42,953 nt of DNA from a virus. Lineage: Duplodnaviria > Caudoviricetes. Position 1 is the stretch's first letter. Every line of letters starts with the position of its first letter. The notes beneath the pieces were generated by a model. The model saw only the letters and a list, made by a program, of their open reading frames with translations, searched no databases and was not told where the DNA came from. Positions 12,502 to 38,023 of this stretch are shown here, piece by piece. Location of the stretch: positions 1 through 42,953 of the IMG/VR virus record IMGVR_UViG_3300045000_000090; one strand, written 5' to 3'. The position numbers and the translations under genes were made by a program.

Positions 12502-12537
12502 GCCAGCGCCCTCAACGGCTCGAATAGGAGAAACCTG

Positions 12538-13217: not shown

Positions 13218-13220
13218 CCG

Positions 13221-14216: not shown

Positions 14217-14217
14217 G

Positions 14218-14382: not shown

Positions 14383-14388
14383 AAGGAG

Positions 14389-14736
14389 GTGCCGGTCCAC
14401 GTGGTGTCATCGTCACCGACCGCGATATCCGCCTCGGCCCTGATATACGTGCGCGTCAAGGTCGCGGCCAAACTCAACGGTGCCAGCGTCAACCCGACCG
14501 CCGACACGGTCACGATGGCGTTCATGTCCGGCTCGGCCACCCCGACGTCCGGGGATTGGAAGACGGCCAGCTGGGACACCGACCCGACGACGAGCCCCCC
14601 GACCTACCGGGCGCGGTGCCTGGTCGGCCCCGCCGGCACGGTCACCCTCACCCCTGGCCTGTGGAACGTGTGGGTGAAGGTCGTAGACAGCCCCGAAGTT
14701 CCGGTCCTGCACGGCGGCCCCCTAAAGGTGGTCTGA
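14389..14736 (+). CDS. Virion protein, Ig-like/BppU-like
   Basis: A.CLVGP.G...L.PG.W.VWVKV.D.PE.P motif; AAGGAG RBS. Confidence 0.7.
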   Translation: MPVHVVSSSPTAISASALIYVRVKVAAKLNGASVNPTADTVTMAFMSGSATPTSGDWKTASWDTDPTTSPPTYRARCLVGPAGTVTLTPGLWNVWVKVVDSPEVPVLHGGPLKVV

Positions 14737-14737
14737 G

Positions 14738-15175
14738 ATGGCCGGAACGAACGCGCAGCCGGCGAAGAAGGCACTGTTCGAACTGCTCACCGCCGAGCTG
14801 GGCGGGATCCGGGTCGACTACGCCTACGACGGGAAACGCGCCGAACGGGAGTACGTCTACCTCGGCCGGGTCGTCGGCACACAGCGGCTGGAAACGTTCA
14901 AGGGCGGCCTCGGCAACCGGCCCACCCGCGATGAGGACCTGCTCCTCAACCTCCACATCCGGGTAACCGGGCCCGGCCAGCAGGTCGCCGACACCGACGC
15001 CCGCGCGACCGAGATCGGCACCGTCATTGAGGAGTTGCTGGCCGGCGAGCAGCTGCAGACCCCCGGCCTGCTCTACGCCGGGATCGCCGAGCTTGAGCTG
15101 GACCCCGGCAACTCGGACGAGGCCGCCACCAGCACGCTGCTGTATCGGGTCGCGCTCGAATCCACTCTGGACTGA
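14738..15175 (+). CDS. Probable tail terminator
   Basis: 145 aa, acidic, located before the tail-tube genes. Confidence 0.6.
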   Translation: MAGTNAQPAKKALFELLTAELGGIRVDYAYDGKRAEREYVYLGRVVGTQRLETFKGGLGNRPTRDEDLLLNLHIRVTGPGQQVADTDARATEIGTVIEELLAGEQLQTPGLLYAGIAELELDPGNSDEAATSTLLYRVALESTLD

Positions 15176-15189
15176 GGAAGGACTTCGTC

Positions 15190-15369
15190 GTGGCCAAGCA
15201 GAAATGGCGGGTGCTGGTCGGCATGAACTATCCGCCGAACGGTCGGGCGGGCACGGAACGCCGCGTCGAGCCGGGCGAGGTCGTCGACGACCTGCCGGCC
15301 GCGGCCGTGGCGGGCCTGGCGGAGCAGGGCGTCATCGAACCGGCCGAGCCGGCCGAGCCGAAGGAGTAG
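15190..15369 (+). CDS. 59-aa hypothetical protein (not in ORF track)
   Basis: GGAAGGA RBS and GTG start; W.VLVG.NYP...R.EPGEVVDDLP...L..QG.IE. Confidence 0.65.
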   Translation: MAKQKWRVLVGMNYPPNGRAGTERRVEPGEVVDDLPAAAVAGLAEQGVIEPAEPAEPKE

Positions 15370-15372
15370 CAC

Positions 15373-16083
15373 GTGCCTCGCGCGCATTCGATGAACAGCC
15401 GGGTGTTCGCCAACGAACGCCACCTGTCCGGGTTCATCTCCGGCTACACGCTGACCCACCAGCGGGCCTACGGGGACGTCACCACGATCGTGGACACCGG
15501 CGAGCGGTGGCTACCGGGCCTGCTCGGTGGCGCCCTGGCCCTGACCGGCCCGTTCGACTCGGACCCGACGGGCCTGTACGCGGAGGCGTTGTCGTCGGCC
15601 GGCCTCGATGACGGCCTGCTGGTTACCGCGATGCCGGACGCGTTCACGGTTGGCCAGCCGGCGTTCATCTCGATCGCCGACATCGAGTCGATCACTGTGG
15701 ACGCGAAGGTCACCGACCCGGTGGGGCTGATGATCAGCGCCAAACCCGACTCGGGGGTGGACTGGGGCCTGTCGTTGCACACCTTCCAGGCCGAGACCGT
15801 TGACGGGAACTCCACCGGCGTGGACAACCTGGCGTCGAGTGCCGGCGGGGCAGTCGCGTCCCTGCATGTGACCGCCTACTCGGGTTTTACGAACGTGGTG
15901 TTCAAGGTGCAGCACAGTGTCGACAACTCGGTGTGGACGGACCTGATCACGTTCACCACGATCACGGCGGTCGGCGCCGAACTCAAACGCTTCACCGGCA
16001 CCGTGAACCGGTATCTGCGCGGCTTCTGGGACGTCACCGGATCCGGCTCGGTCACCTTCGCCATCGCGGCCGCCCGCCGCTAA
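15373..16083 (+). CDS. Tail tube-like protein A with C-terminal accessory beta domain
   Basis: N-terminal ~125 aa align by eye with 16150..16578 (LS..I, DVT...D.GER..PGL, G.FD, VDAKVTD.V). Confidence 0.7.
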   Translation: MPRAHSMNSRVFANERHLSGFISGYTLTHQRAYGDVTTIVDTGERWLPGLLGGALALTGPFDSDPTGLYAEALSSAGLDDGLLVTAMPDAFTVGQPAFISIADIESITVDAKVTDPVGLMISAKPDSGVDWGLSLHTFQAETVDGNSTGVDNLASSAGGAVASLHVTAYSGFTNVVFKVQHSVDNSVWTDLITFTTITAVGAELKRFTGTVNRYLRGFWDVTGSGSVTFAIAAARR

Positions 16084-16104
16084 ACCTCAGCCCGCCTCAC
16101 CACC

Positions 16105-16128
16105 TGACCCGGCCTGCCAGCCGGGTCA
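16105..16128 (+). terminator. Hairpin TGACCCGGC-N6-GCCGGGTCA between the tail-tube paralogs
   Basis: 9-bp perfect intergenic stem with no U tract. Confidence 0.35.
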
Positions 16129-16149
16129 TCGTCATGCCCGGAGGAACCC

Positions 16150-16578
16150 ATGGCCCGTACCCACGGCAAGGACGCGGTCTTTTCCATCAAAGACAGCGGC
16201 GCCACCCTACGAAACCTGTCCGCGTACATCGACAGCGTGGCCGGCCTGCCCGGCGCCCGCGCCCTGTCCGACGTCACCGGGTTCACCGACCAGGGCGAGC
16301 GGTCCATCCCCGGCCTGCAGAGCGCCGCCATCACCGTGTCCGGCTCGTTCGACAGCACGGCCGTCACCGGCCCGAACGTGGTCTTCAACGGCCTACGGAA
16401 CGCTGTGGCGACGTCGACGTTCGAGTACGGGCCGGAAGGATCGGCGGCGGGGAAGGTGAAGTTCACCGGCGAATGCTGGCTGGAGACCTACACGGTCGAC
16501 GCGAAGGTCACCGACAAGGTGCCGTTCCAGGCGACCCTGAAACTCGACGGTGTGGTCACGACCACCGTCTACCCGTAA
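16150..16578 (+). CDS. Major tail (tube) protein B
   Basis: GGAGGA RBS; DVT.F...PGL...TVSG.FD and FEYGPEG...G.VKFTGEC motifs. Confidence 0.8.
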   Translation: MARTHGKDAVFSIKDSGATLRNLSAYIDSVAGLPGARALSDVTGFTDQGERSIPGLQSAAITVSGSFDSTAVTGPNVVFNGLRNAVATSTFEYGPEGSAAGKVKFTGECWLETYTVDAKVTDKVPFQATLKLDGVVTTTVYP

Positions 16579-17030
16579 TGCCGGTCACCGGCGGGGTGGA
16601 GCTGCGGGCCCTGGCGGCCCGGTTGCACGCCGCGGACAAGGCGCTGATACCGCAGCTGCGCAAGGAAATCAAAGCCGCGGTCGACCCGATCCCGACGGCG
16701 ATCCGCGCCGAGATCCCGCGCACGATGCCCAGCGGCTACGCCCCGGTGCTGTCCCGATCGCTGCGCACCCGCATATCGACGCGGGTCACGGCCGGGGACA
16801 TCAAGGTGACTCTGACGGCGTACGCGGACGGCAAGACGAAACGCCGCGAGGTGGGTCCGCTAAACCGTGGGGTGCTGCGGCACACCCGCTGGGGCGACCG
16901 CCGGCACTGGTACGCGCAGGCGGTCCAGGCCGGGTTCTGGTCGCGGCCTATCGAGGCCGGCCTGGATGACGTGAAGGCCGCCGCCGCCCGCGCCCTGGAG
17001 AAAATCGCGAACATCGCAGCAGGAGGCTGA
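16578..17030 (+). CDS. Tail completion/neck protein (HK97 gp10-like)
   Basis: TAATG overlap; basic protein with LRH..WG.R..WY.Q....GFW motif. Confidence 0.65.
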   Translation: MPVTGGVELRALAARLHAADKALIPQLRKEIKAAVDPIPTAIRAEIPRTMPSGYAPVLSRSLRTRISTRVTAGDIKVTLTAYADGKTKRREVGPLNRGVLRHTRWGDRRHWYAQAVQAGFWSRPIEAGLDDVKAAAARALEKIANIAAGG

Positions 17031-17038
17031 CCCCGCCA

Positions 17039-17392
17039 ATGACACAGATCCGGATCGCCCTGTCGGAAAAGGACCTCGCCGAGTACGGCGGCCCAGCCGT
17101 GGTCACCTTCGACACCGAAGCGCTGAAGGACCTGCCGTGCAGCCGCCTGGTGGAGCTGCAGGAGCTGGCCGGCGGTAAGTCGGTGTTGCAGTGGATGGCG
17201 GACATCGACAGGGTCGAGGCGGACGCCCGGCGGCTCGCGGTGTGGTTCGCCCGCTCGCAGGCCGGCGTCGTCGAACCGTTCCACGACTTCGACCCGCAGG
17301 TCCTGCGCGCCGACTTCGACTACTCGCCCGAGGTCGATGATGTCGACCCCCCGGCCGAGGCGCCATTGCCTTCCTCGGAGACCAGCTCATAG
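17039..17392 (+). CDS. Tail assembly chaperone (G)
   Basis: AGGAGG RBS; acidic; upstream of the tape measure gene; ends shortly after the slippery site. Confidence 0.75.
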   Translation: MTQIRIALSEKDLAEYGGPAVVTFDTEALKDLPCSRLVELQELAGGKSVLQWMADIDRVEADARRLAVWFARSQAGVVEPFHDFDPQVLRADFDYSPEVDDVDPPAEAPLPSSETSS

Positions 17393-17541
17393 CCGACCAG
17401 CTGGCCGAGCTCGAACCGTACTTCTCGCTGATCTACCGCATCCACCCGTGGCAGCTGCGGCGCCTTTCGCCGCGCCAGATCTGCCGCTACATCGACGTCG
17501 CCGAAACGCGGACGCGGGCCAAGGAGGCGGGCGATGGCTGA
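17347..17541 (+). CDS. Tail assembly chaperone frameshift extension (T), -1 frame from C CCC CCG at 17347-17353
   Basis: Open -1 frame with no RBS-linked start of its own (…LEPYFSLIYRIHPWQLRRLSPRQ…) ending at TGA 17539-17541. Confidence 0.7.
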   Translation, partial: PPGRGAIAFLGDQLIADQLAELEPYFSLIYRIHPWQLRRLSPRQICRYIDVAETRTRAKEAGDG

Positions 17542-19549
17542 CGAGACGACCCGGCTCACCCTGGAGATCCTGGGCAAGGACCGGTCGGGTAAGCAGGCGT
17601 TGAAGGACGTCGGCGACCAGGCCGACAAGTCCGCGAAGCAGGTCGATCACCTGTCGGTGGCGATCGAAGAGTCCGAGCAGCACATCGGGACGCTCGCCAA
17701 GGAGATCCAGAAAACCGGCAAGCTCGACCTGTTCCCCGAGCTGCGCAAGAGCCAGTCGGATCTGCGCAAGCTGCAGCTGGTCAAGAAGCTGCTGCCGAAT
17801 GAGGAAGACGGTAAGCGGGCCGGGAAACGCACCATGCTGGGCCTGGCCGGGGAGCTGCTCCGGGGTGCCGGGTCGGCCGGGTTGAAGCTGTCCGAGGGCA
17901 TCTCCAAGGCCATCCCGGGTGCCATCGGCCAGGGGCTGCAGTCGATGCCGCCGCAGCTGCAGGCCGGCGTCGTGGCCGCCCTGATCGGCGCGACGGTCAC
18001 CGCGTCCGCGTTTGTCGGTGCAGCCGCGTCGGGGGCCATCATGGCGGCGGTCGGCGGTGGAACCCTCGCGGGCGGTGTGGCGCTGGCGTTCCAGGACCAG
18101 CGGATCCAGGAAGCCGCGAGCTCGCTCGGCAAGGACGTCATGGCGGCGCTGACCGACGCGAGTTCGGTGTTCATCGGCCCGGTCCTCAAGTCGATCGGGA
18201 TCCTGCGGACCGGGTTCGGGCAGATCATGCCCGGCATCAAGACGGCGTTCTCGTCGGTGGCCCCCAGCGTGACCAGCCTTACCAGGGGCGTGGTGGCCTT
18301 GGTGACGAACCTGATGCCCGGCTTCAACAATGTGGTGGCGCGGTCGGCGCCGATCCTCGACATGCTGGGCGGCAAGCTCGGTGACGTCGGCCGGTCGATG
18401 AGTTCCTTCTTCGACTCGATCGCCAGCGGCTCGGATGGCGCCAAGCGCGGCCTGTCGGATCTGGTCACCATCCTGGACGGCCTGATCGTCGGCACCGGCG
18501 CGACCCTCGGATTCCTGTCGAAGACGTACGACAAGACGATCGGGTCGCTGTCGGCGGCCGGCAACGCGATCGGTGACCTGTTCCAGGGCAACTTCTCCAA
18601 GTCGTGGAAGGACCTCGACTGGCAGACGAAGCAGAACACGGCGTCGACCGACGAGTACACCGTGATGCAGATCCGGCTGGCCGACGCCATGAGGGCGACC
18701 GAGGAGCATGCCCGCGCCCTGGCCGACGACCTGGACAAGCTGGCCGGCGCCCAACAGAACGGGCGGCAGGCCAGCAGCGACTTTCAGGCCGGTCTCGACG
18801 AGCTGACCAAGTCGGTCGCTGCCAACGGCACCTCACTAAACGACACGTCCGTTGAGGGCCGCAACAACCTGCGGGTCGTCGATTCCCTGATCTCCGCCTC
18901 GGAGCGGGCCGGCGCCGCTGCCCGGGACCAGGCGCTGGCCCAGGGCAAAAGCGCGGATGAGGCGAATGCGGCCGGGGCGCGGATGCGTGAAGGGTTCATC
19001 GCCGACCTGCAGCGGGCAGCGAACAAGGCGGGCCTGTCGAAGAAGGCGATCAACGACATGGTGGCCGCCCTGGTCGCGGCCGACAACAAGCGGATCTCCA
19101 TCTTCATCGACGAAATCCACCGCACCCGCACGTCGGACAGCCCCTCGCAGACGTTCCACGGCCTGCGGTCAGGTGGTGTCGTGGCCGCCGCGTCGGGTCT
19201 GGTGACCGGCGGCGGGATCCTGCGCTCACCGACCATCCTCGCCGGGGAACGCGCCACCGGCGGCGAAGTGCTGATGCCCCGCATCCCGGGCCAGGGCGGG
19301 CGGGCGCGGCAGCGCAGCCTGGCGGCCGTCGCCGCGGACTGGGCGGGCGGCATGTTCGTGTCCGGGCAGGGTGGCGCGGGCGGCGGCGCATCCGGTGCGG
19401 GCGGCGGTTTCTCCGGCGGCCCGACGCGGGTCGAACTCACGTTCAGGTTCCCGGATCGCCCCGACCTTGACTGGCTGTTCAAGGCGTTCCGCAAAGAGGT
19501 CCGGGTCACCGGCGGCGGCGACGTCCAGGTCGCGTTCGGGAAGAACTGA
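17534..19549 (+). CDS. Tape measure protein
   Basis: 671 aa, Ala/Gly-rich and helical; L.LEILGKD N-terminus; C-terminal GG...AGE..GGEVLMP motif. Confidence 0.9.
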   Translation: MADETTRLTLEILGKDRSGKQALKDVGDQADKSAKQVDHLSVAIEESEQHIGTLAKEIQKTGKLDLFPELRKSQSDLRKLQLVKKLLPNEEDGKRAGKRTMLGLAGELLRGAGSAGLKLSEGISKAIPGAIGQGLQSMPPQLQAGVVAALIGATVTASAFVGAAASGAIMAAVGGGTLAGGVALAFQDQRIQEAASSLGKDVMAALTDASSVFIGPVLKSIGILRTGFGQIMPGIKTAFSSVAPSVTSLTRGVVALVTNLMPGFNNVVARSAPILDMLGGKLGDVGRSMSSFFDSIASGSDGAKRGLSDLVTILDGLIVGTGATLGFLSKTYDKTIGSLSAAGNAIGDLFQGNFSKSWKDLDWQTKQNTASTDEYTVMQIRLADAMRATEEHARALADDLDKLAGAQQNGRQASSDFQAGLDELTKSVAANGTSLNDTSVEGRNNLRVVDSLISASERAGAAARDQALAQGKSADEANAAGARMREGFIADLQRAANKAGLSKKAINDMVAALVAADNKRISIFIDEIHRTRTSDSPSQTFHGLRSGGVVAAASGLVTGGGILRSPTILAGERATGGEVLMPRIPGQGGRARQRSLAAVAADWAGGMFVSGQGGAGGGASGAGGGFSGGPTRVELTFRFPDRPDLDWLFKAFRKEVRVTGGGDVQVAFGKN

Positions 19550-22500
19550 TGGACCCGCGCAGCGACGCCTTCATCGGCGGCCAGTGGCTTGACGTGTCCC
19601 CCGATGTGCGCGGCCAGGAAGCCGTCATCGGGCGCGGCCGAGCCGACGAACAGTCCCGGGTGACATGGACCAAAGTTGGCCTGGCGCTCAACAACCGCGA
19701 CGGTAGGTACAGCAACCGCAACCCGACGTCCCCGTACTACGGGCTGATAGGCCGCAACACTTTGCTGCGGACCCGGATGCGGCTACTGGTCGACACGTTC
19801 ACCCGCACCACTGCCGCCGGGGGCTGGGGTACAGCCGACACCGGGCAGGTGTGGACGGTCACCGGCGGTCCGGCGCCGGAGTTTTCCACCGACGGGTCGC
19901 GCGGGTTCATGGCGATCGCCGACAGCACCACCGCCCGCCAGATCCTCAACAACACCCCGGTCCTGAACGCCGACGTCGTTGCCACGATCCAGGTCGGGGT
20001 ACTCGCGTCCGGTAACACCATCTCGGCGGGCCTGACCGCCCGCAACGCCGCCGGCAGCTACTACCTGGCAGACATGGGCCTGCACACCAACCAGAGCGTG
20101 ACCCTGGAACTGTGGTCGGCGACACCGGCCTCGGGTCTGGTGTCGCTCGGGTCGGTGACGGTTGCTGGCCTCACCCACACCATCACCACCCAGTTCCGGT
20201 TGCGGTTCCAGGTCAACGGCCAGCAGCTACGCGCCCGGGTGTGGGACGCGGCGACCGTCGAACCAACCACGTGGCACATTGTGCGGACCAGCAGTGCCGT
20301 CACCGCGGCCGGCGGGGTGGGCGCCTACGGCTTCCTGTGGCCGGTGAACACGAACACGAAACCGGTCACCATCGCCTTCGACAACGTCGAATGCAACGTG
20401 CACCGCTCCATTGGCGAAGTGAGCCAGTGGCCGCAACGCTGGGACGTGACCGGCCGCGACGTGTGGGTGCCCTTGGAGGTGTCCGGCATCATGCGGCGCC
20501 TGACCCAGGGTGCCCGCAAGCTCAAGTCGCCTATCTACCGGGAAGCGACGACCGCCACCAACCTGCAGTACCTGATCGCGTACTACCCCTGCACCGACGG
20601 TTCCTCGTCGACAACGGCCGCGTCGGGCATCGGCGGCCCACCCATGGTCGCCTCGACGGGCGTGTCATTCGCGGCCGACTCGACGTCGTTCCCCGGCTCC
20701 GAGCCGCTCGCCGTGTGCACCGCTGGCGGCTTCACCGCCACCCTGCCGCCCTACACCTTCACCAACACGTTCGCCTTCCGGGGCCTGTTCACCTTCGGTG
20801 CGGGCGGCCTGACCGACATGGCGGTGCTGGCCGACACGTTCGGTATCGGCGCGGTCCGCCGCTGGGCGATCCGGTACCGCACCGGCGGAGGCATCAGCCT
20901 CCACGCCTACGACCAGGCCGACACCGAGCTGGGCACCAGCGGCGCGGTGGCGTTTAACGCCAACGGCAAAAGCCTGATGGTCGGGTTCAGCGCGACCCAA
21001 AACGGCGCCAACATCGACTGGGCGATATTCACCCGCGAGGCGCGCGCCGATGGGTCGGTGGGCCAGGTGGGTCTCAGCGGCACATTCAACGCATTGACCT
21101 TAACCCCACCTAACACGTTGATCATCGGCAACGGCGGGAACCTGTCGTCGACGACCGTGGGCCACTTCATGATCGGCACCAGCGTCGCGCTGGCGTCCGG
21201 TGTCTGGTCGGCGTTGACCGGAAACTCCGGTGAGAAAGCGGCGACCCGGATGGCGCGGGTGTGCGCGGAGGAAGGTGTGCCCTTCGTGCTGGTCGGCAAC
21301 GCATCCGACACGGCCGCGATGGGTCCACAAACGACCGGCACCCTGCTGGAAATCGTCAACGACTGCGGTGACGCCGACGCCGGGATCGTCTTCGAACCAC
21401 GCGAAACGTTCGGACTGGGCTACCGGACCCGCACCAGCCTGTACAACCAGACCGGGCTGAGCCTCAACTACGCCGCCGCGCACCTCACGCCGCCCCTGGA
21501 ACCCATCGACGATGACCAGGGCGTCCACAACGACATCACCGCGAGCCGACCAAACGGCTCATCCGTGCGGGCCTTCCTTGGCACCGGGCCGCTGTCCATC
21601 CTGGACGTGCCCAACGGTATCGGCACCTACGAAGATCCGATTACGGTCAACGTCCAAACCGATGCGCAGCTCTCGGACGTGGCCGGCTGGCGGCTACACA
21701 CCCAGGCCTGGGATGAGGCACGGTTCCCGACGGTCACCGTCAATCTCGCGGCCCCCGCGTTTGTCGCCAACCCCACCCTTGCGGCCGGCGCGGCCGGCGT
21801 CGACATCGGCGACTATTTCTCGATCGCCAATCCTCCGCTCTGGTTGCCGCCTGACCCCATCGAGCAGATTGCCCAGGGCGCCCAGGAGCGGCTCGGCAAG
21901 TTCCGCTGGCAGATCACCTGGAACGCATCCCCGGCCGGCCCGTACCGGGTCGTCGTCCTCGACGGCGCCGGGAACCTCGGCCGCCTCGACCAGCCCGGCT
22001 CCACACTCACCACCGGCGTCAACACCACCGCCACCGCCCTGTCCGTCACCGTCCCCACCGGCAACCCACTGTGGACCACATCCATCACCGACGTGCCGTT
22101 CGACATCGGCGTGGCCGGCGAACGGATCCGCGTCGACGCGGTGGGGTCCGTGATCAACGCCAACCCGTGGATGATTGTTGACGCGGCCGGCTGGTCCGGC
22201 GACGGATCCACCCTGGCCTGGTCGACCGCCCAGCAGTACAACCCGGCGTACGGCTCCCTCTTCGTCACACCGACCGCCGGGGGACTCCCGGCCTACGCCC
22301 GGTCCACCGCCCGGGTCGCTGGCACCGCGACCCTTCAATACCAGATCGGGGCGTGGATCCGGGCCAGCACCGCGTGGGCGTCGGGTTTTCGGCTCGGCGT
22401 GGACTGGTACACCGCAACCGTCGGCGGGTCCTACATTTCGACGACGTTCCACAGTGCCTCGGTTGTGCTGACCGCGAACACGTGGACGTACCTGTCCGGT

Positions 22501-22731
22501 GTCGTCACCGCCCCGGCCACGGCGGGCGGCGGCCAACTGTTTGTCGTCCAGAGTGGAACGCCGGCCGTGACGGATGTCTGGTACGCGTCCGGCATCACCT
22601 ACGCGTTCGTGGGCACGATCAACGCCTCACCCCAGGGGATGACGACCACCCGCAGCATCAACGGCGTCGTCAAGAGTCAACTGTCCGGCGCCGCCGTAGA
22701 CCTATGGCGACCGCCCGTCCTGGCCCGATAG
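19549..22731 (+). CDS. Large minor tail/tail-tip protein with lectin/CBM-like inserts
   Basis: 1060 aa; LNN.DGRYS..NP.SPYYG, DTFTRT..GWGTADTG and TRSINGVVK motifs. Confidence 0.85.
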   Translation: MDPRSDAFIGGQWLDVSPDVRGQEAVIGRGRADEQSRVTWTKVGLALNNRDGRYSNRNPTSPYYGLIGRNTLLRTRMRLLVDTFTRTTAAGGWGTADTGQVWTVTGGPAPEFSTDGSRGFMAIADSTTARQILNNTPVLNADVVATIQVGVLASGNTISAGLTARNAAGSYYLADMGLHTNQSVTLELWSATPASGLVSLGSVTVAGLTHTITTQFRLRFQVNGQQLRARVWDAATVEPTTWHIVRTSSAVTAAGGVGAYGFLWPVNTNTKPVTIAFDNVECNVHRSIGEVSQWPQRWDVTGRDVWVPLEVSGIMRRLTQGARKLKSPIYREATTATNLQYLIAYYPCTDGSSSTTAASGIGGPPMVASTGVSFAADSTSFPGSEPLAVCTAGGFTATLPPYTFTNTFAFRGLFTFGAGGLTDMAVLADTFGIGAVRRWAIRYRTGGGISLHAYDQADTELGTSGAVAFNANGKSLMVGFSATQNGANIDWAIFTREARADGSVGQVGLSGTFNALTLTPPNTLIIGNGGNLSSTTVGHFMIGTSVALASGVWSALTGNSGEKAATRMARVCAEEGVPFVLVGNASDTAAMGPQTTGTLLEIVNDCGDADAGIVFEPRETFGLGYRTRTSLYNQTGLSLNYAAAHLTPPLEPIDDDQGVHNDITASRPNGSSVRAFLGTGPLSILDVPNGIGTYEDPITVNVQTDAQLSDVAGWRLHTQAWDEARFPTVTVNLAAPAFVANPTLAAGAAGVDIGDYFSIANPPLWLPPDPIEQIAQGAQERLGKFRWQITWNASPAGPYRVVVLDGAGNLGRLDQPGSTLTTGVNTTATALSVTVPTGNPLWTTSITDVPFDIGVAGERIRVDAVGSVINANPWMIVDAAGWSGDGSTLAWSTAQQYNPAYGSLFVTPTAGGLPAYARSTARVAGTATLQYQIGAWIRASTAWASGFRLGVDWYTATVGGSYISTTFHSASVVLTANTWTYLSGVVTAPATAGGGQLFVVQSGTPAVTDVWYASGITYAFVGTINASPQGMTTTRSINGVVKSQLSGAAVDLWRPPVLAR

Positions 22732-23256: not shown

Positions 23257-23281
23257 GAAACGCCACATCGAGTAGGTAGGG

Positions 23282-23376
23282 CGGCCCCGGCGGGATTCGA
23301 ACCCGCAAGCCGCAGGGGTTTCACGGCAAGCCTGTATGTACAGAGGCCCGAGTCATGCCATTTGCACCACGGGGCG
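23282..23376 (-). tRNA. Aberrant tRNA-like gene, class II architecture, Tyr(GUA)-like; possibly a pseudo-tRNA
   Basis: Perfect T arm GCGGG-TTCGAAT-CCCGC; acceptor stem GCCCCG/CGGGGC; D-loop AAATGGCA; long variable arm. The anticodon loop is enlarged (CTGTACATAC) and CCA is not encoded. Confidence 0.55.
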
Positions 23377-27413: not shown

Positions 27414-28625
27414 TCAGGCCGGCACACCAAGGCTTTCGGCGAGACTGGCGACCTCACGGCGGAGCATCGGACCCGCGTGCGCCTGCAGCTCGTGAGTAAT
27501 CGACCGGGCGTACGCGCTGAACAGCGTTGCCTCGGGCGAGGTCTGCTGGGCTCGGCGAAGCAGGTGGACAGCACCGGCGTACTCCCGCTTCAACATCTGC
27601 CCCCGCGTGGCTTCGATCATGAGGCGGGTACGGCGGGGCAACGACCCGACTGCATCGACGTCGATAGAGTTGGCGCGACGCGACGCGGAAGCGATCTTTC
27701 CTAGCTCGACATCGAGGGTGAGCGCGACGTCATCGCACGACGCGCCGAACAGCACATACGCGGCTGGCATCTCGGCGGCGACCCGGTCAGCGTTAACCGC
27801 CGCATCCCAATCTCGCCATGCCCGTGCAGGCTGGCCGTCTCGGGCATGATTCCACGCTGACGCGAGGCGAACGATGGACCGCTGGCGGGCGACCGTCGGG
27901 CTCTGCTCGCGGGCGGAGTCGAGCTGCCGGAGGGCGTCGTCGACGACCTGGTGCGCCTGGTCGACGTAGCCGAAGTCGCGGTAGAGGTACGCACTAAACC
28001 ATGCGGCCCGGCCGAACGCCGCGGCGTCCTCGGATTCCAGCGCAGAGCTCATCCCGCGGTCGACGACTACCCATAGCAGTTCAGGTGCGTCCTGATAGCA
28101 GAGGTAGAGCTGCCCAAGGTGGTAGGCCTCGGCGAGGGCCCGGTGTCCGGCAGGTGTGTCGGCGGTCCGCGCCGCGCGCTGGGCGTCGACCAGCAGGCGC
28201 GGCAAGACGGCGGCGAGGTCGCTGCGGTCGTGGGTGGACACCGCCCGCAGCTGCCAAGCGTTGCGGACTCGTGCCCAGATGTCGTCGACGGTCGGAGGCG
28301 GGTCGCTACCGGCGGTGCCGTAGGACGACATGGCGCGGCGTACGTCACCGAGCGCGGGATGTTCGGGGCGTGCGTAGAGGACGGTGGGCAGTTCGTCGTT
28401 GCCGAGCAGGTCGGTCAGGTCGGGCACCTTGAGTACTTCGGCGAGGCGGGCCACCATCTTCAGGCCGGTGCCCCGGTTGCCGCGCTCGATCTGTCGTAGC
28501 CACTCCGTGGATCTGCCGCACAGTGCGGCTACGGCGTCGCGGGACATGCCGCGGCGGGTTCGTGCTGCCTTGACACGTTGACCGAATTCAGGGTCGGGTG
28601 GTACGCCTACGCCGTTGCGGGGCAT
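27414..28625 (-). CDS. XRE-family HTH regulator with long helical (TPR-like) C-terminal domain
   Basis: FGQRVK.AR.RRGMSR..VA.LCGRS.EWLRQIERG; architecture typical of filamentous actinomycetes. Confidence 0.9.
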   Translation of the reverse strand: MPRNGVGVPPDPEFGQRVKAARTRRGMSRDAVAALCGRSTEWLRQIERGNRGTGLKMVARLAEVLKVPDLTDLLGNDELPTVLYARPEHPALGDVRRAMSSYGTAGSDPPPTVDDIWARVRNAWQLRAVSTHDRSDLAAVLPRLLVDAQRAARTADTPAGHRALAEAYHLGQLYLCYQDAPELLWVVVDRGMSSALESEDAAAFGRAAWFSAYLYRDFGYVDQAHQVVDDALRQLDSAREQSPTVARQRSIVRLASAWNHARDGQPARAWRDWDAAVNADRVAAEMPAAYVLFGASCDDVALTLDVELGKIASASRRANSIDVDAVGSLPRRTRLMIEATRGQMLKREYAGAVHLLRRAQQTSPEATLFSAYARSITHELQAHAGPMLRREVASLAESLGVPA

Positions 28626-28725
28626 CGCGGTTACTCCCAGGTAGAGGACTGGGCGGCGGCGCGTCGGGCCTCTACCCCCGACGAGCCGCCAGTGGCCACG
28701 CTACCCCTGGTCACCCGGACGGGTG

Positions 28726-28746
28726 ATGTCCACAGCCTGTGGACAG
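28726..28746. promoter_or_regulatory. Pair of DnaA-box-like 9-mers in inverted orientation with a 3-bp spacer
   Basis: ATGTCCACA-GCC-TGTGGACAG; each box is one mismatch from TTGTCCACA. Confidence 0.5.
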
Positions 28747-28754
28747 ACGGGCGG

Positions 28755-28991
28755 TCAGTTCGCGTCGCGGCGCAGGCCGGCCCAGTGGTTGTAGATCCAC
28801 CGGCCGAGCCGCAGCCGGCGCCCGGTGCCTTTGCACCACCAGCACACCCGGAACGCGCGGCCCGACGGCGACGGCCGCCGGCCCAACCCCGAGCAGACCC
28901 GGCACGGCTTGAACGCCCAGATCCAGCACGCCAGCCCGTAGCCCACCGCCCACGCACCGACCGCCAACACCAGCAGAACAAAGCCGTCCAT
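28755..28991 (-). CDS. Small TM protein with CxxCxGxG Zn finger (type seen downstream of AICE traB)
   Basis: N-terminal TM; CRVCSGLG...CWWCKGTG; AAGGAGAGG RBS. Confidence 0.8.
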   Translation of the reverse strand: MDGFVLLVLAVGAWAVGYGLACWIWAFKPCRVCSGLGRRPSPSGRAFRVCWWCKGTGRRLRLGRWIYNHWAGLRRDAN

Positions 28992-29010
28992 CGATACCCT
29001 CTCCTTGATC

Positions 29011-29106
29011 GGCTAGCAGCGGCAGGTGCTAGACCTAGCACCGCCGCTAGCACCGCAAACCGCTGTGACCTGCTGCTTAGCGGCTAGCGGCACCCGCGCC
29101 TAGACC
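29011..29106. repeat. CTAG-core repeat cluster directly downstream of traB; candidate clt (cis-acting locus of transfer)
   Basis: CTAG at 29013, 29029, 29035, 29047, 29084 and 29100 (GCTAGCAG, GCTAGACC, CCTAGCAC, GCTAGCAC, GCTAGCGG, CCTAGACC). Confidence 0.55.
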
Positions 29107-31202
29107 CCCGAATTGGCCGGGGAACCCGTGATCTGACCCTTGGTCCGCTCGGTGATAGCCGCCCGCAGATGCGCGTACTCGATCCCGCGACGGTTCGCAC
29201 CCTCACCCGTGGTCGGATCTGTGCCCCACACCTGCACCGTGCTGATCCCGTACGGCTTGAGCGCCTTCGCCAACTGGTCGGCCGTCCACCCCACGTACAC
29301 CTCGGGCCGCAGCTCAGACAGCAAAGCGATGACCGTCTCCGACCACATCTTGTCCTCGCCGGAAGGCCACACCGCCGCGACGTCTTCCAGCAGGTTGTAC
29401 GCCGGCACCCGCACCTGCGGTTCGTGGTCGGCCGGCAGGACACCGGCGGCCTGGCGGATCCGCAGCGCCCGAGCCACCACCCGGTCCGCGTCGGGCTTGT
29501 TCACGTAGTAGGTGTGCACCACCTCGGGCTTGTTCAGCCCCACCAACCAGCCCCAGCCGATGTCATCGTCACCAAAGATCGTGGCCCGGATGCCCTGCTT
29601 GTGCCGGCCCGTACCCAGGATCATGTCGTTGGCTTCGTGGCCCATCACCCGCAGGCAGAAGCGCATACCGGCGTTGTCGCTGACACCCTTCGGCAGACTC
29701 TTCGCGTCCGGCCGCTGAGTGGCCAGCAGCAGCACGATGCCCAACGCCCGACCCAGCTTGATGATCTTCTCGGCCAGTTCGCCGGCCTCTTTGCCGTACT
29801 CGGAGTGCGCGAACAGCATCTGGCATTCGTCGATCGCCGCGACCAGGGGGCGCAGGTCAAGGCCGGGCATGGCCGCCAACAGCGGTGTGATCTTGTTGTC
29901 GGGCGCCTTGCCGGCCTTCGCCATCCGCTTGATGATCGGACCACGGCGGATGCATTCGGCGAACAGATCCCGCAGCATGTCCAACGCGGCGGCGGCCGTG
30001 TCGTCATCGGCACCAGACCCGAACTCGGTGCACAGCGACTCCAACGGGTCAAGGTCGCCGGTACCTTTGAGTTCGAACAGCCGCAACTCCACGCGCGGAT
30101 CCAGGGCGGCGAACAGCAACGGCAGCCGCAGCGCCGATGTCTTCCCGGCGCCCGGCATCGCGCCGATCAGCCAGTTGCGGTACATCAGGGCGCCGTCGAC
30201 CTTACGTAGCCGCGGATCCGTGCCGAACGGGAACGGCTTGAACACGTCCGTGGGCTTGTCGTCGCCCTTCACCAGCGGCCACGGCGGCTGGCGCATCTCC
30301 GACGCCGGTTCGTAGCCGACCCACAGAGCCAGCCGCCCCGGGTGCGCCTTCGGCATCGGCTCCGGCCACACCTGGTCGACCGGAATCCTCAGCGCCGACG
30401 CCAGCTTCGAGCGCCGCTCGATGACCTCCGCCGCGTCGATGCCACCGGGTAGGTCGACGATCGCCATCTGCCCCGGACCGTCCACCGCGATGTCGTGCAC
30501 CAACTCGACGTCGGACGGGTCCTTCACGCCCGGGATGCGGCACGCCATCACCGCCGCCCGGACCAACTCCAGGGTCAGCTTGCGGTACTTCGCTGACACC
30601 ACCGCCGGGGTGACGATCGGATGCTCGTCGGGCCGGCCGAAGTGCGCCAACGTCGGTACCACCACGACCAGCAGCAGCACCACATCAACCCACCACGGGG
30701 CGACGAACACGAGCGCGACCACCACCACGGTCAGGAAGACCACCTCGACGAGCAGCACACTGCCCCGCCACGCCCGGGTCACCTTCGCCTCCCGGTGCAG
30801 CCGCAGCCACATGATGCCGTCGTTGTCGGTGGCCGCCTGCTGTCGCAGGTGGTGCTGCTCCAGCACCCACCACCAGGTGATCTGCCGCCCGGCCAGCTTG
30901 AACACGCCGGCCGCCGACCAGAACAGGGCCAACGGCAGGTACCACAACGGCAGCCGGGCCAGGTGGTACGCGGACTTGTGGGCGACCCGGCCGGTGACGT
31001 TCTTGACGGTCGGTTTCAGGTTCCCGCGCCGCAGGACCGCGGGCACGATCGGCCGCCGCGGCTCGCCCTTGCTCACGATCGCGGCGAACACCGGCTCACG
31101 CGCTGGCTTAGGTGTCCTAGCCGGGTCGGCCGGACTGGTCTGCGCGTCGAACACCTCGCCGACTGGCGGCACTTCCAGGCGATCGGGCGACGAATCGGGC
31201 AT
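29100..31202 (-). CDS. traB: TraB-type FtsK/SpoIIIE conjugative DNA translocase
   Basis: N-terminal TM segments; Walker A GAMPGAGKT; ELKG.GD; Walker B IDECQ; GRALGI.L.LATQRP; C-terminal wHTH-like domain. Confidence 0.88.
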   Translation of the reverse strand: MPDSSPDRLEVPPVGEVFDAQTSPADPARTPKPAREPVFAAIVSKGEPRRPIVPAVLRRGNLKPTVKNVTGRVAHKSAYHLARLPLWYLPLALFWSAAGVFKLAGRQITWWWVLEQHHLRQQAATDNDGIMWLRLHREAKVTRAWRGSVLLVEVVFLTVVVVALVFVAPWWVDVVLLLVVVVPTLAHFGRPDEHPIVTPAVVSAKYRKLTLELVRAAVMACRIPGVKDPSDVELVHDIAVDGPGQMAIVDLPGGIDAAEVIERRSKLASALRIPVDQVWPEPMPKAHPGRLALWVGYEPASEMRQPPWPLVKGDDKPTDVFKPFPFGTDPRLRKVDGALMYRNWLIGAMPGAGKTSALRLPLLFAALDPRVELRLFELKGTGDLDPLESLCTEFGSGADDDTAAAALDMLRDLFAECIRRGPIIKRMAKAGKAPDNKITPLLAAMPGLDLRPLVAAIDECQMLFAHSEYGKEAGELAEKIIKLGRALGIVLLLATQRPDAKSLPKGVSDNAGMRFCLRVMGHEANDMILGTGRHKQGIRATIFGDDDIGWGWLVGLNKPEVVHTYYVNKPDADRVVARALRIRQAAGVLPADHEPQVRVPAYNLLEDVAAVWPSGEDKMWSETVIALLSELRPEVYVGWTADQLAKALKPYGISTVQVWGTDPTTGEGANRRGIEYAHLRAAITERTKGQITGSPANSGV

Positions 31203-31282
31203 GCTGGACTTCTTCCTGTTCGCTGGGAGGGGGCCGGGCGCGGCCAGCTTTCCTAGGGCTGTCGGCCGCGCCCGGCGCGGAA

Positions 31283-31408
31283 CTACTTCGTGTTCTTGCT
31301 GGTCTGCTGCGGCTGCTTGTCGGCGAGCGCCTTGGCGTGTGCTGCCGCCTGCTGCGGGGTAGGGCCTGACTGGCGTCCCCACTGGTTTGCCTGGCTGAAC
31401 TTGCCCAT
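31283..31408 (-). CDS. 41-aa peptide (not in ORF track)
   Basis: GGAAGGAG RBS; MGKFSQANQWGRQSG... Confidence 0.55.
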   Translation of the reverse strand: MGKFSQANQWGRQSGPTPQQAAAHAKALADKQPQQTSKNTK

Positions 31409-31479
31409 GAACGTCTCCTTCCGTTGCTCTGGCCCACCACGGTGGCGGCCAGCTTTCTAGGGGGCTGAGGGCGTGCGGG

Positions 31480-31623
31480 TTACTTCTTGAGGGCCTTCAG
31501 GATGCCGGCGGCGAGACCGGTCGTGACCTTGTTGCCGTCCTGGTCGACCGGCCCGGTGTAGCCGGACTGGCGCAGCGCCTTGAGCTTCGGGTACGAGGCG
31601 TCAGACTTCGGGGTACCGCTCAT
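31480..31623 (-). CDS. 47-aa peptide with LR.SGYTGP.DQDG motif (not in ORF track)
   Basis: GAAGGGAG RBS; motif recalled from small actinomycete mobile-element proteins. Confidence 0.65.
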   Translation of the reverse strand: MSGTPKSDASYPKLKALRQSGYTGPVDQDGNKVTTGLAAGILKALKK

Positions 31624-31704
31624 CGGATTGCTCCCTTCGCTGGTCCGCCACCGTGGCGGCCACCGCGAACACCCGGACGATGCGGCCGGGCGCTGCGGAA
31701 GCCG

Positions 31705-31896
31705 TCACGACTGCGGCTCGTCCACCGTGGGTCGGGTGAGGAAGCTGGCCACGTGGCAGGCCAGGCTGAGGACACCGGTCAGCGCGAACGCGACCTTGAC
31801 CGGCATGGACGCCTCGCCGGTGACCAGGATGAAGATCGCCAAGCCGGCGAGGACGAGCCCCAGGGCGCGGGCTATCCGGTTGAACGCGGTGCTCAT
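31705..31896 (-). CDS. Two-TM small membrane protein (Spd-like)
   Basis: AAAGGAG RBS; two hydrophobic helices. Confidence 0.7.
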   Translation of the reverse strand: MSTAFNRIARALGLVLAGLAIFILVTGEASMPVKVAFALTGVLSLACHVASFLTRPTVDEPQS

Positions 31897-32729
31897 GATG
31901 GCGCTCCTTTGCTCGCACCGGTCAGCACCGGCACGTGGTTGTTGATCTCCACACCAGTTGGTGTGTTGATCACTTCGGGGGTGCTGGTCGTTGGCGGCAC
32001 GATGGCCGCAAGATGACGCCGCGCGGTGGACTCGGAGATGCCGACCTTCACCGCGACCTCGGTGGGTGTCGCGTCCGGGTTCCGGGCGACGAACTTGGCC
32101 ACCGCTGGCGCCGACGATGGCGGCAACTTGCGCCCACCACGCCGCCGCCGAGGTGCACCAGCCGGAACATCGGTGCCACCTGCCGACCGTCCGGACTCGG
32201 ACAGTTCGCTGGGCAATTCGAGCGCGGCGGCGAGAGCGGCCTGTGCGGCTTTCGCCATGGTGAGCGGGTCGACCTCTGGCGCCTCGGTTTCTGTGTCATC
32301 TGAGACGACCTCACCGGCCCGGCGACGGCTCGTACCGATCAAGGCGCTCGTCGCCATCACCATCAGCCCGTCGACCGCCAGCGGCCCGATCGTGGCCGTT
32401 AGCGGATCCTCGGCGTAGAACGCCAGCAGGCCCGACATGTGCCGGTACGACACGACCGCGGCGACGATCGCCACCGGCAGCAGGCCCAAGAACCGGGCCA
32501 CCACCCACCGCTTGCCCGTGGGCCACCCGGTGCGGGCGAAGATCTCCACCGCGACCAGCAGAGCCACCGGCCAGAACACCGCGCTGCCGACCGCACCCCG
32601 TTCCGGTACCCACCCGGCCAGCGCGCCTACGGGCGGCACGTACGAGTGGGCAATGTTCGCGGCGATCGACACCGCGCCGCCGAGGAGCGCACCCGTGTAC
32701 GCCCAACCCCGACCCATACCTGGCCTCAC
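31893..32729 (-). CDS. Four-TM plus C-terminal HTH protein (DUF2637/SpdB2-like spread protein)
   Basis: VSIAANIAHS, FWPVAL, AAVVSYRHM and GPLAVDGLM motifs; C-terminal PTEVAVKVGISESTARRH HTH. Confidence 0.8.
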   Translation of the reverse strand: MRPGMGRGWAYTGALLGGAVSIAANIAHSYVPPVGALAGWVPERGAVGSAVFWPVALLVAVEIFARTGWPTGKRWVVARFLGLLPVAIVAAVVSYRHMSGLLAFYAEDPLTATIGPLAVDGLMVMATSALIGTSRRRAGEVVSDDTETEAPEVDPLTMAKAAQAALAAALELPSELSESGRSAGGTDVPAGAPRRRRGGRKLPPSSAPAVAKFVARNPDATPTEVAVKVGISESTARRHLAAIVPPTTSTPEVINTPTGVEINNHVPVLTGASKGAPS

Positions 32730-33001
32730 CGGCTGATCCCCTTCCGAATGGTCTTCGCGGTGTCGTTGGCGTGGCTGTAGACCGACCGGGGCGCCACCAT
32801 CGCGACGACCCACACGACGAGCACCAGGCCCACCGCCGCGCCGTCCAAGGCCGCCAGCAGCAGCCACCCACCTTGCGACCAGATGACCCCCTGGCTGCCG
32901 GCGGCGAACCCGGCAATGGAGCCCACAGACGCCACCCGGCGGGTCCGGGGCGAGTAGTCCCGGCCCCGCGACCGGCGTGCCGAAACGAGTTCACGGCTCA
33001 C
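32726..33001 (-). CDS. Small membrane protein
   Basis: GTGA-coupled; hydrophobic segments. Confidence 0.55.
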   Translation of the reverse strand: MSRELVSARRSRGRDYSPRTRRVASVGSIAGFAAGSQGVIWSQGGWLLLAALDGAAVGLVLVVWVVAMVAPRSVYSHANDTAKTIRKGISR

Positions 33002-35407: not shown

Positions 35408-35421
35408 TAGTTGGTCAACTA
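35408..35421. promoter_or_regulatory. Palindrome TAGTTG-GT-CAACTA (operator or attP core candidate)
   Basis: Perfect 6-bp inverted repeat around a dinucleotide, in the AT-rich gap upstream of the integrase. Confidence 0.45.
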
Positions 35422-35493: not shown

Positions 35494-36957
35494 ATGTTGA
35501 GCGACTTCTACGGCAGGAAATCGTCCAAGGACGAAGGTCGTTCCGTCGCGTCCCAGGAAGCAGAGTGGCGAGCCGACTGCACCGAGCAGAACTTCAAGAC
35601 CGGCCGCGCGTTCGCCGACCCGGACAAGTCCGCCAGCCGCTACGCCAAGCAGCCCCGCCCCGACTTCGAAGCGCTGGTCGAGCACATCCGGTCCGGGCAG
35701 TGCGAAATGCTGACCATCTGGGAGTGCTCGCGCGGGTCGAGGAAGCTCGGCGAGTGGATCGAGTTCCTTGACCTCTGCCTTGAGCAGAAGACGCTGATCC
35801 GCGTCCTCAACGACGAGCGCACCTACGACATGAGTAAGGATTCCGACTACAGCACCCTGGCCACCGCCGGGGTCAAGAGCCGGTCCGAGTCCGAGATCAT
35901 CTCCAAGCGCACCCTGCGGGGCAAGCGCGCCGCCGCCGTTGCCGAGGGTGGCGGGCGCCCAGCCGGGAAGCTCGTCTACGGGTTCCTGCGCGAGTACGAC
36001 GAGCGCGGCAACTTCCTGCGCCAGTACGAGCACCCCGAGCAAGGGCCGGTGGTCCGCGAGATCGTCTCGCTGGTCGCCGCCCCTGTGCCCCTGAGGGAGA
36101 TCGCCCGCAGGCTCAACACCCGCGGCTTCACCACCGCACAGGGCCACGCCTGGACTGCCGAGCAGGTTCGCGACACCGCCATCAACCCGGGTTACGCCGG
36201 CCTGCGCGTCGACCGGGGAAAGATCGTCGGTCCAGCGTGCTGGGACCCGATCGTGGACGTCGCCGAATGGAAGACAGCGCATGCCCTGCTGACCGATCCG
36301 AAGCGGCGGAAAGGCAACGACCCGAGGCTCGCCAACTGGTTGACCGGTGCCGTCTCCTGCGGTGTCTGCGACAAGCCACTGCACAGCGCGAAGCGGGGGA
36401 CCGGGGTTCGCATCTACCGATGCCTGAGTTGCCTGCGCTGCTCGGCGTCCGCCGCTGGTATGGAAGCCGTGGTTGAGACGCAGTTGCTGGCCCGCATGCG
36501 GCGGATCGACGCCAAGGAGTTGTTCCTGCCCCGGGTCGACGACGAAGCGCTCCGGCTTGCCGAGAAGGAAGAGACCGACCTGCGGAAGCATCTCCAGGAG
36601 CACTACGACCTACCTCCCGGACAGTTGTCTGCGACGGGGCTGGCAGCGATTGAGGCGAAGCTCCTGCCGCAGATCGCCGAGGCCGAGGCGAAGGTGAAGC
36701 GCCTGTCCCTGCCCCCTGTACTGGCCGAGCTGGCGGATGTTGACGTGGTGGCCGAGTGGGACAACCTGGCCATCCACGTTCGGCGGGAGTTGGCGCGGAC
36801 GCTGGCGACCCTGATCCTGGACCCGGCGGTCTCGACCCCGCCGCGCTTCGACCGCCGTCGGCTGGGCCGCTCGCGCTGGGCCGGCGACGACCTCACGTGG
36901 GCCGCGCATTGGGCCGGGGTCGCGCCTGCTTCTCGGCCTCATTCAATCGATACTTGA
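35494..36957 (+). CDS. int: Large serine recombinase (integrase)
   Basis: YGRKS catalytic motif; SR.SR; ESE.ISKR..RG; recombinase domain YGF...NPGYAG; Zn ribbon CGVC...YRC..C. Confidence 0.95.
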   Translation: MLSDFYGRKSSKDEGRSVASQEAEWRADCTEQNFKTGRAFADPDKSASRYAKQPRPDFEALVEHIRSGQCEMLTIWECSRGSRKLGEWIEFLDLCLEQKTLIRVLNDERTYDMSKDSDYSTLATAGVKSRSESEIISKRTLRGKRAAAVAEGGGRPAGKLVYGFLREYDERGNFLRQYEHPEQGPVVREIVSLVAAPVPLREIARRLNTRGFTTAQGHAWTAEQVRDTAINPGYAGLRVDRGKIVGPACWDPIVDVAEWKTAHALLTDPKRRKGNDPRLANWLTGAVSCGVCDKPLHSAKRGTGVRIYRCLSCLRCSASAAGMEAVVETQLLARMRRIDAKELFLPRVDDEALRLAEKEETDLRKHLQEHYDLPPGQLSATGLAAIEAKLLPQIAEAEAKVKRLSLPPVLAELADVDVVAEWDNLAIHVRRELARTLATLILDPAVSTPPRFDRRRLGRSRWAGDDLTWAAHWAGVAPASRPHSIDT

Positions 36958-37870
36958 GCACCTCAATTTGTCCGGCGAGAGACTGAATATGCATGTACGC
37001 CTGCTCGCGCTCGGCGGCCAGTGTGGCGATCTCGTCTTCCGCCCGGGTGACAAACCGATCGACCTGCCGCTTGTCGTAGCCACGAAGAGCGGTGGCGAAA
37101 CCTATCGGGTCGCTAATCCCAAAATCAGGCGAATCAGGGAGCCGGGGCTCTGGGGCGTCGATCTGCCCGGGTCGTCGACCTTTCAGCCCACCCTTAGGCT
37201 CGATGATCTCCTTCAAGCGTGCCCGCGCTACCAGCATTTCTGTATCGAGCGTATCCAATATCGTGTTTATAGCCTTGCCCTGGCGGACCAAGTCGTCGCG
37301 CCAGTCCTGGAGCCCCTCCTCGGTCGACGGCGAGGTCGCGACCATCCGAAGCCTCGCATATGTGCCCTTGCCAAACTGGGTGTCCACCTGGCGTTCAAGC
37401 CGGGCCGCGAACCGCCGATAGTTGTGCTCACCCGGCGGCTCGATAATTTCTGGAACGAACATGGAAATGAAGGCCTCCATGAATGACCTGGTGTGCGGAA
37501 CGGATTCGGCGAATACGAGTTCGTAGCCGACGGATGGCCCACCATCCTCCGCCGGCAAGAATTCGTCCGGCGGTAGCAATAGGCCGAGGATCGGAACCCG
37601 GAGCGCCAACGAAAGCGCGAGCAAATCGTCAGCGTCGAACTGTCGGATGCGTTTGCCGTCCCACCCTCGTTCGGCGGCACTGACCGTTGCCTTCGACCAC
37701 GGACGACCGGTCAACTCCGCCAGCATCGTGCCCAATTGCTCCTGGGTATACCCAAGCGCTCGACGCCAGTGTCCGACGTTATAGGCCACGAACTGGTTGA
37801 GCGTGTAGCTCGACCTGTTGGGGGGCTCAGCGGGCTGCCGCTCCTCGATGGCCGGCGTCGGGTCTGTCAT
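36893..37870 (-). CDS. XRE-family immunity repressor with C-terminal DivIVA-like domain
   Basis: N-terminal HTH (R.ALGYTQEQLG...WSKATVSAAER); C-terminal FATALRGYDKRQVDRFV followed by a coiled coil. Confidence 0.8.
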   Translation of the reverse strand: MTDPTPAIEERQPAEPPNRSSYTLNQFVAYNVGHWRRALGYTQEQLGTMLAELTGRPWSKATVSAAERGWDGKRIRQFDADDLLALSLALRVPILGLLLPPDEFLPAEDGGPSVGYELVFAESVPHTRSFMEAFISMFVPEIIEPPGEHNYRRFAARLERQVDTQFGKGTYARLRMVATSPSTEEGLQDWRDDLVRQGKAINTILDTLDTEMLVARARLKEIIEPKGGLKGRRPGQIDAPEPRLPDSPDFGISDPIGFATALRGYDKRQVDRFVTRAEDEIATLAAEREQAYMHIQSLAGQIEVLKYRLNEAEKQARPRPNARPT

Positions 37871-37905
37871 GGATGCACTGTAGCCAGTGAGTCAACACTA
37901 GTCCA
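37871..37905 (-). promoter_or_regulatory. Leaderless repressor promoter: TGGACT-N17-TACAGT-N6-ATG
   Basis: Minus-strand hexamers at 37905-37900 and 37882-37877; the spacer contains a GTGTTGAC operator-like box. Confidence 0.6.
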
Positions 37906-38015
37906 GACTTGCCGCGCCACGGTGGCAGGTTTGTTGACTCAGTGGTCATGGTCGTGCGATCGTGTCACGGTGTTGACCGAGATCGTCGAGTCAAGTACGG
38001 CGTTGACCGTCAAGG
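37887..38015. promoter_or_regulatory. Operator cluster (GTTGAC/GTCAAC boxes) and rightward promoter candidate TTGACC-N17-TACGGC
   Basis: Boxes at about 37891, 37933, 37972 and 38002, between divergent HTH genes. Confidence 0.5.
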
Positions 38016-38023
38016 GCAGTGCA

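Follow-up and report, generated by a model that had tools for sequence, protein, structure and literature searches.

Results

The repressor locus

The window, by which we mean the whole 42,953-nt stretch of DNA analysed here, is a complete temperate phage whose circular contig, with a 127-nt terminal repeat, represents free phage. It has genes for a terminase, a portal, a capsid-protease and an endolysin, and none of the 30 ORFs scanned could be assigned to a tail or tape-measure family. At 9874–22731, an 875-aa DUF6582-protease-capsid fusion is followed by 671-aa and 1060-aa proteins that match only PHROGs of unknown function or otherwise uninformative ones, and at 23280–23376 ARAGORN called a tRNA of undetermined type that overlaps the start of the endolysin gene and is probably spurious. 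The FtsK/SpoIIIE protein (Table 1) resembles actinomycete plasmid transfer proteins, is 39–47% identical to its three best matches in a plasmid collection, and nothing ties it to the repressor. Its neighbours at 27414–32867 include a weak DUF2637 match and a second XRE regulator of 403 aa; in this region, a phage otherwise equipped with terminase, portal and capsid genes possibly carries a transfer module of the plasmid type.

Table 1. Features of the repressor locus (first nine rows, positions in the window) and of three related loci (last three rows, positions in the locus named).
Feature	Position	Strand	Basis
XRE-type repressor gene P0001, 325 aa, likely immunity repressor	36893..37870	-	open frame of 325 codons; divergent from cro-like gene; family alignments
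HTH DNA-binding part, aa 24-98	37577..37801	-	Pfam HTH_3 E 0.003, under cut-off; helices in low-confidence model
Family's own C-terminal helix, aa 184-223	37202..37321	-	predicted; alignable across relatives; not detectably DivIVA-derived
Pro/Gly-rich linker, aa 226-257	37100..37195	-	pLDDT <50 over most
Captured DivIVA-like head of FilP/Scy-group gene, 58 aa, aa 258-315	36926..37099	-	motif loop and heptad coiled coil
Large serine integrase	35494..36957	+	convergent; overlaps repressor 3' end by 65 nt
Switch region	37871..38020	.	operator-like repeats; 14-nt inverted arms at 37884-37897 and 37932-37945
cro-like HTH gene, 77 aa	38021..38254	+	Pfam HTH_3 E 2.7e-11
FtsK/SpoIIIE protein, context only	29100..31382	-	phrog_1358 E 1.7e-25
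DivIVA-coil subgroup, locus L114	689-1498
DivIVA-coil subgroup, locus L195	7629-8771
DivIVA-coil subgroup, locus L223	9480-10295

The repressor gene P0001 diverges from the cro-like gene across a 150-nt gap that contains six GTCAA half-sites against 0.28 expected; the layout is that of an immunity switch, in which P0001 would repress the cro-side promoter. The match of its DNA-binding part to HTH_3 lies under the cut-off, and 31 of the best 150 of 1308 relatives match the same model at E 1e-4. P0001, with a probable N-terminal HTH, shares with XRE/CI-type repressors that have a divergent cro the cro-like gene, the operator-like repeats and an adjoining integrase, but differs from them in its C-terminal slot, which holds pieces of host scaffold proteins; a Pfam search detected no S24 or self-cleaving peptidase domain in P0001, so this slot would be a plausible place for the inducing input.

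A sequence-only reading of this locus had proposed that the frame of the XRE repressor runs without a stop into a DivIVA-like stretch, and this holds: the frame is unbroken throughout, leading from the HTH through the predicted helix and the linker to a DivIVA-like head. The peptide quoted in that reading covers residues 258–305 (37099–36956), and homology of the head continues to about residue 315, inside the overlap with the 3′ end of the integrase gene. The head contains the motif GY[DN]xx[QE]V[DN], as in PMC9858780, followed by a heptad coiled coil with 13 a/d positions in register, and a low-confidence single-sequence AlphaFold model (pLDDT 55.5) predicts a helix at residues 267–316. An extended form of the pattern, with two fixed hydrophobic positions, is absent from the head and occurs in just 19 of 80 host rows, and is thus not discriminating. 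The DivIVA HMM check on the tail that the same reading suggested gave a split result: TIGR03544 recognised it (22.6 bits for the whole protein and 25 for the tail, against a cut-off of 22), but the Pfam DivIVA model PF05103, with a cut-off of 28, reached just 22 bits on the full protein and 25.3 on its terminal 85 aa. The full-length models for DivIVA/Wag31 (NF050102, 14 bits, cut-off 260) and Scy (18.9 bits, cut-off 1040) do not recognise P0001. The protein is on record in three contigs.

Two other accounts of the C-terminal region were rejected. A separately started mini-gene for the head would find no in-frame start codon between codons 220 and 292 of P0001, and the family's own helix, considered as a worn DivIVA coil, gave no HMM match and an hhalign probability of 0.8%.

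Origin of the head

A scan of GTDB genomes with the head pattern gave 590 matches, of which 437 were confirmed; the best 80 of these were used, and all are titled Micromonosporaceae or unclassified actinobacteria. The 48-residue core of the P0001 head is identical at up to 37 of 48 positions to residues 20–67 of a conserved coiled-coil host gene, and at the DNA level the two are 75–81% identical over 112–145 nt, which confirms a resemblance to chromosomal coiled-coil proteins of Micromonosporaceae that the sequence-only reading had suggested. The motif lies near the N-terminus in 80/80 of the best host rows. All nine invariant donor columns are kept in the P0001 head, a count that is partly circular as six of these columns lie in the search pattern. 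In five of six loci inspected, the host gene is downstream of thiolase, methylmalonyl-CoA epimerase and/or crotonyl-CoA reductase genes, the family scan behind these identities having been run for locus L056 only; the sixth locus holds a paralogue located elsewhere. Some Micromonosporaceae have another, less closely related copy of the donor gene (three of five genomes: G001, G002 and G005; loci L058 and L060–L062), and the copy at L062 sits apart from the mce locus.

The head nests in the clade of the host gene (99/95, 47 rows), on a long branch and with 58 columns, and is identical to the upstream paralogue of that gene at just 12–14 of 48 positions. By sequence, therefore, the donor of the P0001 head is a Micromonosporaceae FilP/Scy-group gene near mce/ccr, and not divIVA; the earlier proposal of a captured DivIVA-type host domain stands as regards a DivIVA-like head of host origin, but not as regards divIVA as its source. 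The FilP/Scy group of the DivIVA-like superfamily takes in genes of this kind (Martinez-Goikoetxea and Lupas 2023, PMC9858780, available text). P0001 resembles that group, as described there, in its RGYDxxQVD motif followed by a heptad coil and in a donor near methylmalonyl-CoA epimerase and crotonyl-CoA carboxylase/reductase genes, and is unlike it in that the domain belongs to a phage protein, where it sits C-terminally, joined to an HTH and lacking the long rod. We infer the function of the host gene itself from Streptomyces FilP and Scy.

Divergence of the head

Divergence was compared with 61 orthologue-type host rows; the other 19 of the 80, which are more distant and of paralogue type, were dropped. 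Pairwise, the P0001 head gives a pS of 0.61 and a pN of 0.18, so its divergence is mostly synonymous; these are pairwise measures over 48 codons, and part of the terminal branch falls within a host lineage outside the sample. At matched pN, pS is 0.46–0.53 between hosts and 0.59–0.62 between phage and host, and neutral decay predicts the opposite shift. At the first two codon positions the G+C content of the head is close to that of the host (0.73 and 0.40, against 0.75 and 0.36), and at codon position 3 it is lower, 0.73 against 0.87, a value matched by just 1 of 80 hosts. The P0001 head is thus apparently under selection.

Related repressors

Whether homologous repressors keep the fusion, a question raised with the original reading, has a mixed answer: the head is found in none of the first 22 repressor relatives and in 0 of 42 repressor loci (five of which run off their contig), but one divergent homologue, P0037, keeps it, and a subgroup carries a different piece of DivIVA. 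An exhaustive search for repressor relatives gave 1308 matches, the best 150 of which were examined; among 215 family rows, 2 carry the head.

P0037, known from a single 2154-nt contig of a source collection other than that of P0001, has 331 aa and is 36% identical to P0001 overall; its HTH is likewise followed by a comparable linker and by the same kind of head. P0037 scores 13.6 bits on TIGR03544, below the cut-off of 22. In an alignment, the Pro, Leu, Gly and Ile residues of the two linkers are similarly spaced, and the linker alone has no BLAST match. The two heads have 30 of 48 residues in common; shared positions amount to 12/13 in the core, 8/12 at the tip, 6/14 in the flanks and 7/19 on the surface, and an exposed Leu-Arg at the tip is kept in both. 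In the head tree, P0001 and P0037 group weakly (73/0). A sister relationship of their HTH parts is rejected (AU p 0.02, 32 chosen rows), and each has nearer relatives without a head, so the head module would either have moved between repressor lineages or have been captured twice.

Viral contigs, phage records and plasmids yielded no further head fusion and no stand-alone copy of the head. Among 401 genomes of the donor family there was one repressor, which lacks the head; 301 genomes of a second family gave eight matches, none with the head and one of them a DivIVA-coil fusion; and the ten matches in 401 genomes of the class were all ordinary divIVA genes. A search for longer proteins, covering up to 8000 candidates, gave at least 29 matches, two of them fusions. 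Another scan matched 165 of 301 genomes, and in 30 loci the matches span only the head, in frames of 507–856 aa.

The C-terminal half of the DivIVA/Wag31 model was matched at E 1e-4 or better by 17 of the best 150 of the 1308 relatives, and each other recognisable non-HTH appendage (TPR, NUDIX, DUF1508 or a CBASS cyclase piece) by one member of the same set. Judged by motif, the DivIVA C-terminal coil fills the slot that the head occupies in P0001 in 19 of the 215 rows, of which 212 are distinct, with one protein entered twice among the 19 (P0018, P0067, P0072, P0075, P0079, P0098, P0103, P0104, P0110, P0112, P0113, P0129, P0137, P0141, P0152, P0154 and the three loci of Table 1), and one further fusion is present in genome G1083. 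The coil is identical to that of real DivIVA proteins at up to 32 of 44 positions; its start point differs between fusions and its distal end is kept. At the three loci with context, which belong to integrative elements, the fusion is flanked, as judged by eye, by an excisionase-like HTH gene on one side and a tyrosine-integrase-like gene on the other. Since a single 29-row clade (support 81), to which neither P0001 nor P0037 belongs, takes in 18 of the 19 rows, the DivIVA-coil fusions may go back to a single capture, in which case overall recurrence may amount to just two events.

Several side observations concern this family. In P0135, similarity to the DivIVA coil ends part-way, as if frameshifted by a sequencing error or in a pseudogene. 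P0039 has a weak HicA-like match and a CBASS cyclase piece, and by eye P0040 contains a similar stretch; further C-terminal appendages among P0127, P0075, P0110, P0038 and P0041 comprise NUDIX, TPR, DUF1508, a weak zinc-finger match and extra HTHs. At L221:1255–1947 a short DivIVA-like protein follows, by eye, directly after a globin-like oxidoreductase gene.

Integrase neighbourhood and attachment site

At the five closest integrases outside the window (41–51% identity, one duplicate locus left out), a convergent ORF overlaps or abuts the 3′ end, so the 65-nt overlap in the window fits the layout of the family; the integrase at L086 (45% identity) is without a clear convergent partner. At the three closest serine integrases (L083–L085), the host gene breaks off immediately upstream of int, at the end that faces away from the repressor, as judged by eye; all three appear to insert in the same permease-like gene. 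By analogy, attP of the phage would lie on the far side of int from the head. An inverted-repeat scan for attP singled out no site; a perfect 6-bp inverted repeat around GT at 35408–35421, 78 nt upstream of int, is a candidate that over 24-nt arms is at background level. In integration-dependent immunity, attP lies inside the repressor and the integrase is a tyrosine integrase; unlike those systems, the window has a serine integrase. An attP inside the head, or more broadly in the 3′ end of the repressor gene, is less likely: the relatives point upstream of int, and the scan confirmed no site.

Discussion

P0001 is a real, apparently selected and recurrent fusion of a likely phage repressor with a captured host domain, and would represent a new variant among XRE-type repressors of mobile elements. 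On present sequence evidence, its family has drawn on polar-growth scaffolds through two donor genes and two different domains, an apparent donor bias that is inflated to the extent that less conserved coiled coils are harder to recognise as captures. In the accessible literature, as judged from titles, abstract openings and term counts, we found no description of repressor, phage or mobile-element fusions with DivIVA-type domains, and the available text of the superfamily survey PMC9858780, whose cluster files could hold such proteins unremarked, names a kinase as the sole additional folded domain and never mentions phage.

The reading that we tentatively prefer, at somewhat below even confidence, is that the head pairs with the host FilP/Scy-group protein as well as with itself, such that free, operator-bound repressor follows the growth state of the host. 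The head of P0001 would dimerise, in keeping with the role reported for DivIVA-like heads, which are described as parallel dimers with crossed loops (PMC9858780, available text), and, being about 75% identical to the host protein with its core intact, would be likely to form mixed coiled coils with that scaffold. The amount of free repressor would then track the state of the scaffold, and through repressor action at the cro-side promoter induction would be affected. This growth-state coupling is favoured by the closeness of the head to the host gene, by its synonymous divergence with a drop in G+C at codon position 3 only, and by P0037, which has the same architecture on a non-sister HTH and retains the tip Leu-Arg; the DivIVA coil in the same slot of 17 of 150 relatives points the same way. 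Coupling is also favoured by Corynebacterium Wag31, whose isolated C-terminal domain self-aggregates and reaches a pole when endogenous Wag31 is present; the isolated N-terminal domain is directed to the septum by contacts with proteins and showed no binding to liposomes (PMC13463852, available text). Against it stand the conservation between the two fusions, which is high in the core and low on the surface, as a plain dimeriser would give, and the rarity of the head, together with a recurrence of scaffold capture that may comprise only two events. More broadly, it is possible, if rather doubtful, that repressors of actinobacterial phages and integrative elements have repeatedly captured assembly domains of polar scaffolds and co-assemble with them; the cytoskeleton would then inform the dormancy decision about growth, branching or septation independently of SOS.

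A close rival, which fits the conservation almost as well and does not exclude growth-state coupling, is that the head is a borrowed self-association module whose origin in a polarity protein is incidental, giving stronger dimers or higher oligomers for cooperative operator binding. DNA-binding domains of lambda cI fused to leucine zippers do repress, core positions of the head are conserved above surface ones, the DivIVA-coil fusions keep their distal end and vary at the start, and the switch region has several operator-like sites. Both captured pieces are, moreover, self-association coils (PMC9858780; PMC13463852; available text of both). However, P0001 retains the long helix proper to its family, which in many relatives forms the C-terminus; a coil so similar to a host scaffold protein would tend to be titrated by it; and the two different donors belong to one pathway. 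We regard self-association as the whole explanation as possible, with the balance of the evidence somewhat against it.

It is unlikely that the repressor serves as a tether that anchors operator DNA at a septum or growing tip and in this way positions free phage DNA for partition or for FtsK/TraB-type transfer. The tip residues are kept in both head fusions, the phage encodes a plasmid-like FtsK protein, and TraB of pSG5 is found at hyphal tips (PMC2440964, available text), but the P0001 fusion lacks the C-terminal oligomerising coil of DivIVA, the isolated Wag31 head was septal and bound no liposomes (PMC13463852, available text), and a repressor would act mainly on the integrated prophage, where tethering has no obvious use. 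P0001, like Bacillus RacA and Corynebacterium ParB, would be a DNA-binding protein linked to a polar scaffold, but those proteins belong to host chromosome systems and bind DivIVA as partners rather than carrying a copy of one of its domains.

That the head is an incidental leftover, be it host DNA picked up at an attachment site or through aberrant excision, a selectively neutral read-through or a chimeric assembly, we consider very improbable. The rarity of the head would suit such an origin, as would a terminal branch that includes time in an unsampled host lineage, but a second fusion comes from another source collection, divergence is mainly synonymous, the related integrases cut their host gene on the side of int away from the repressor, and the circular contig is that of free phage. 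Least probable of all is a decoy function, in which the head would upset the host scaffold and shut out other phages that depend on it, as repressors are usually made at low levels, the head has no stand-alone copy in viral contigs, phage records or plasmids and no in-frame start of its own, even if a truncated head could act dominantly. The model for such a decoy is mycobacteriophage Fruitloop gp52, which binds Wag31 and impedes phage Rosebush (PMC7474061, available text); it resembles P0001 as a temperate actinophage protein aimed at a polar scaffold, to which P0001 would bind, and differs in that the same text presents gp52 neither as fused to a repressor nor as a domain captured from a scaffold.

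That repressors have turned more than once to the polarity scaffolds of their hosts is surprising, and the idea is directly testable through 58 residues. To our knowledge, how induction is timed without a self-cleaving repressor in temperate phages and integrative elements of filamentous actinobacteria is poorly understood; if growth-state coupling is true, these elements would tie dormancy to how their host grows. Even if self-association is all that the head provides, regulators of mobile elements would be taking cytoskeletal coiled coils as oligomerisation modules, in an architecture absent from the available text of the PMC9858780 survey. In either case, the captured pieces would be natural probes of the FilP/Scy-group proteins of Micromonosporaceae.
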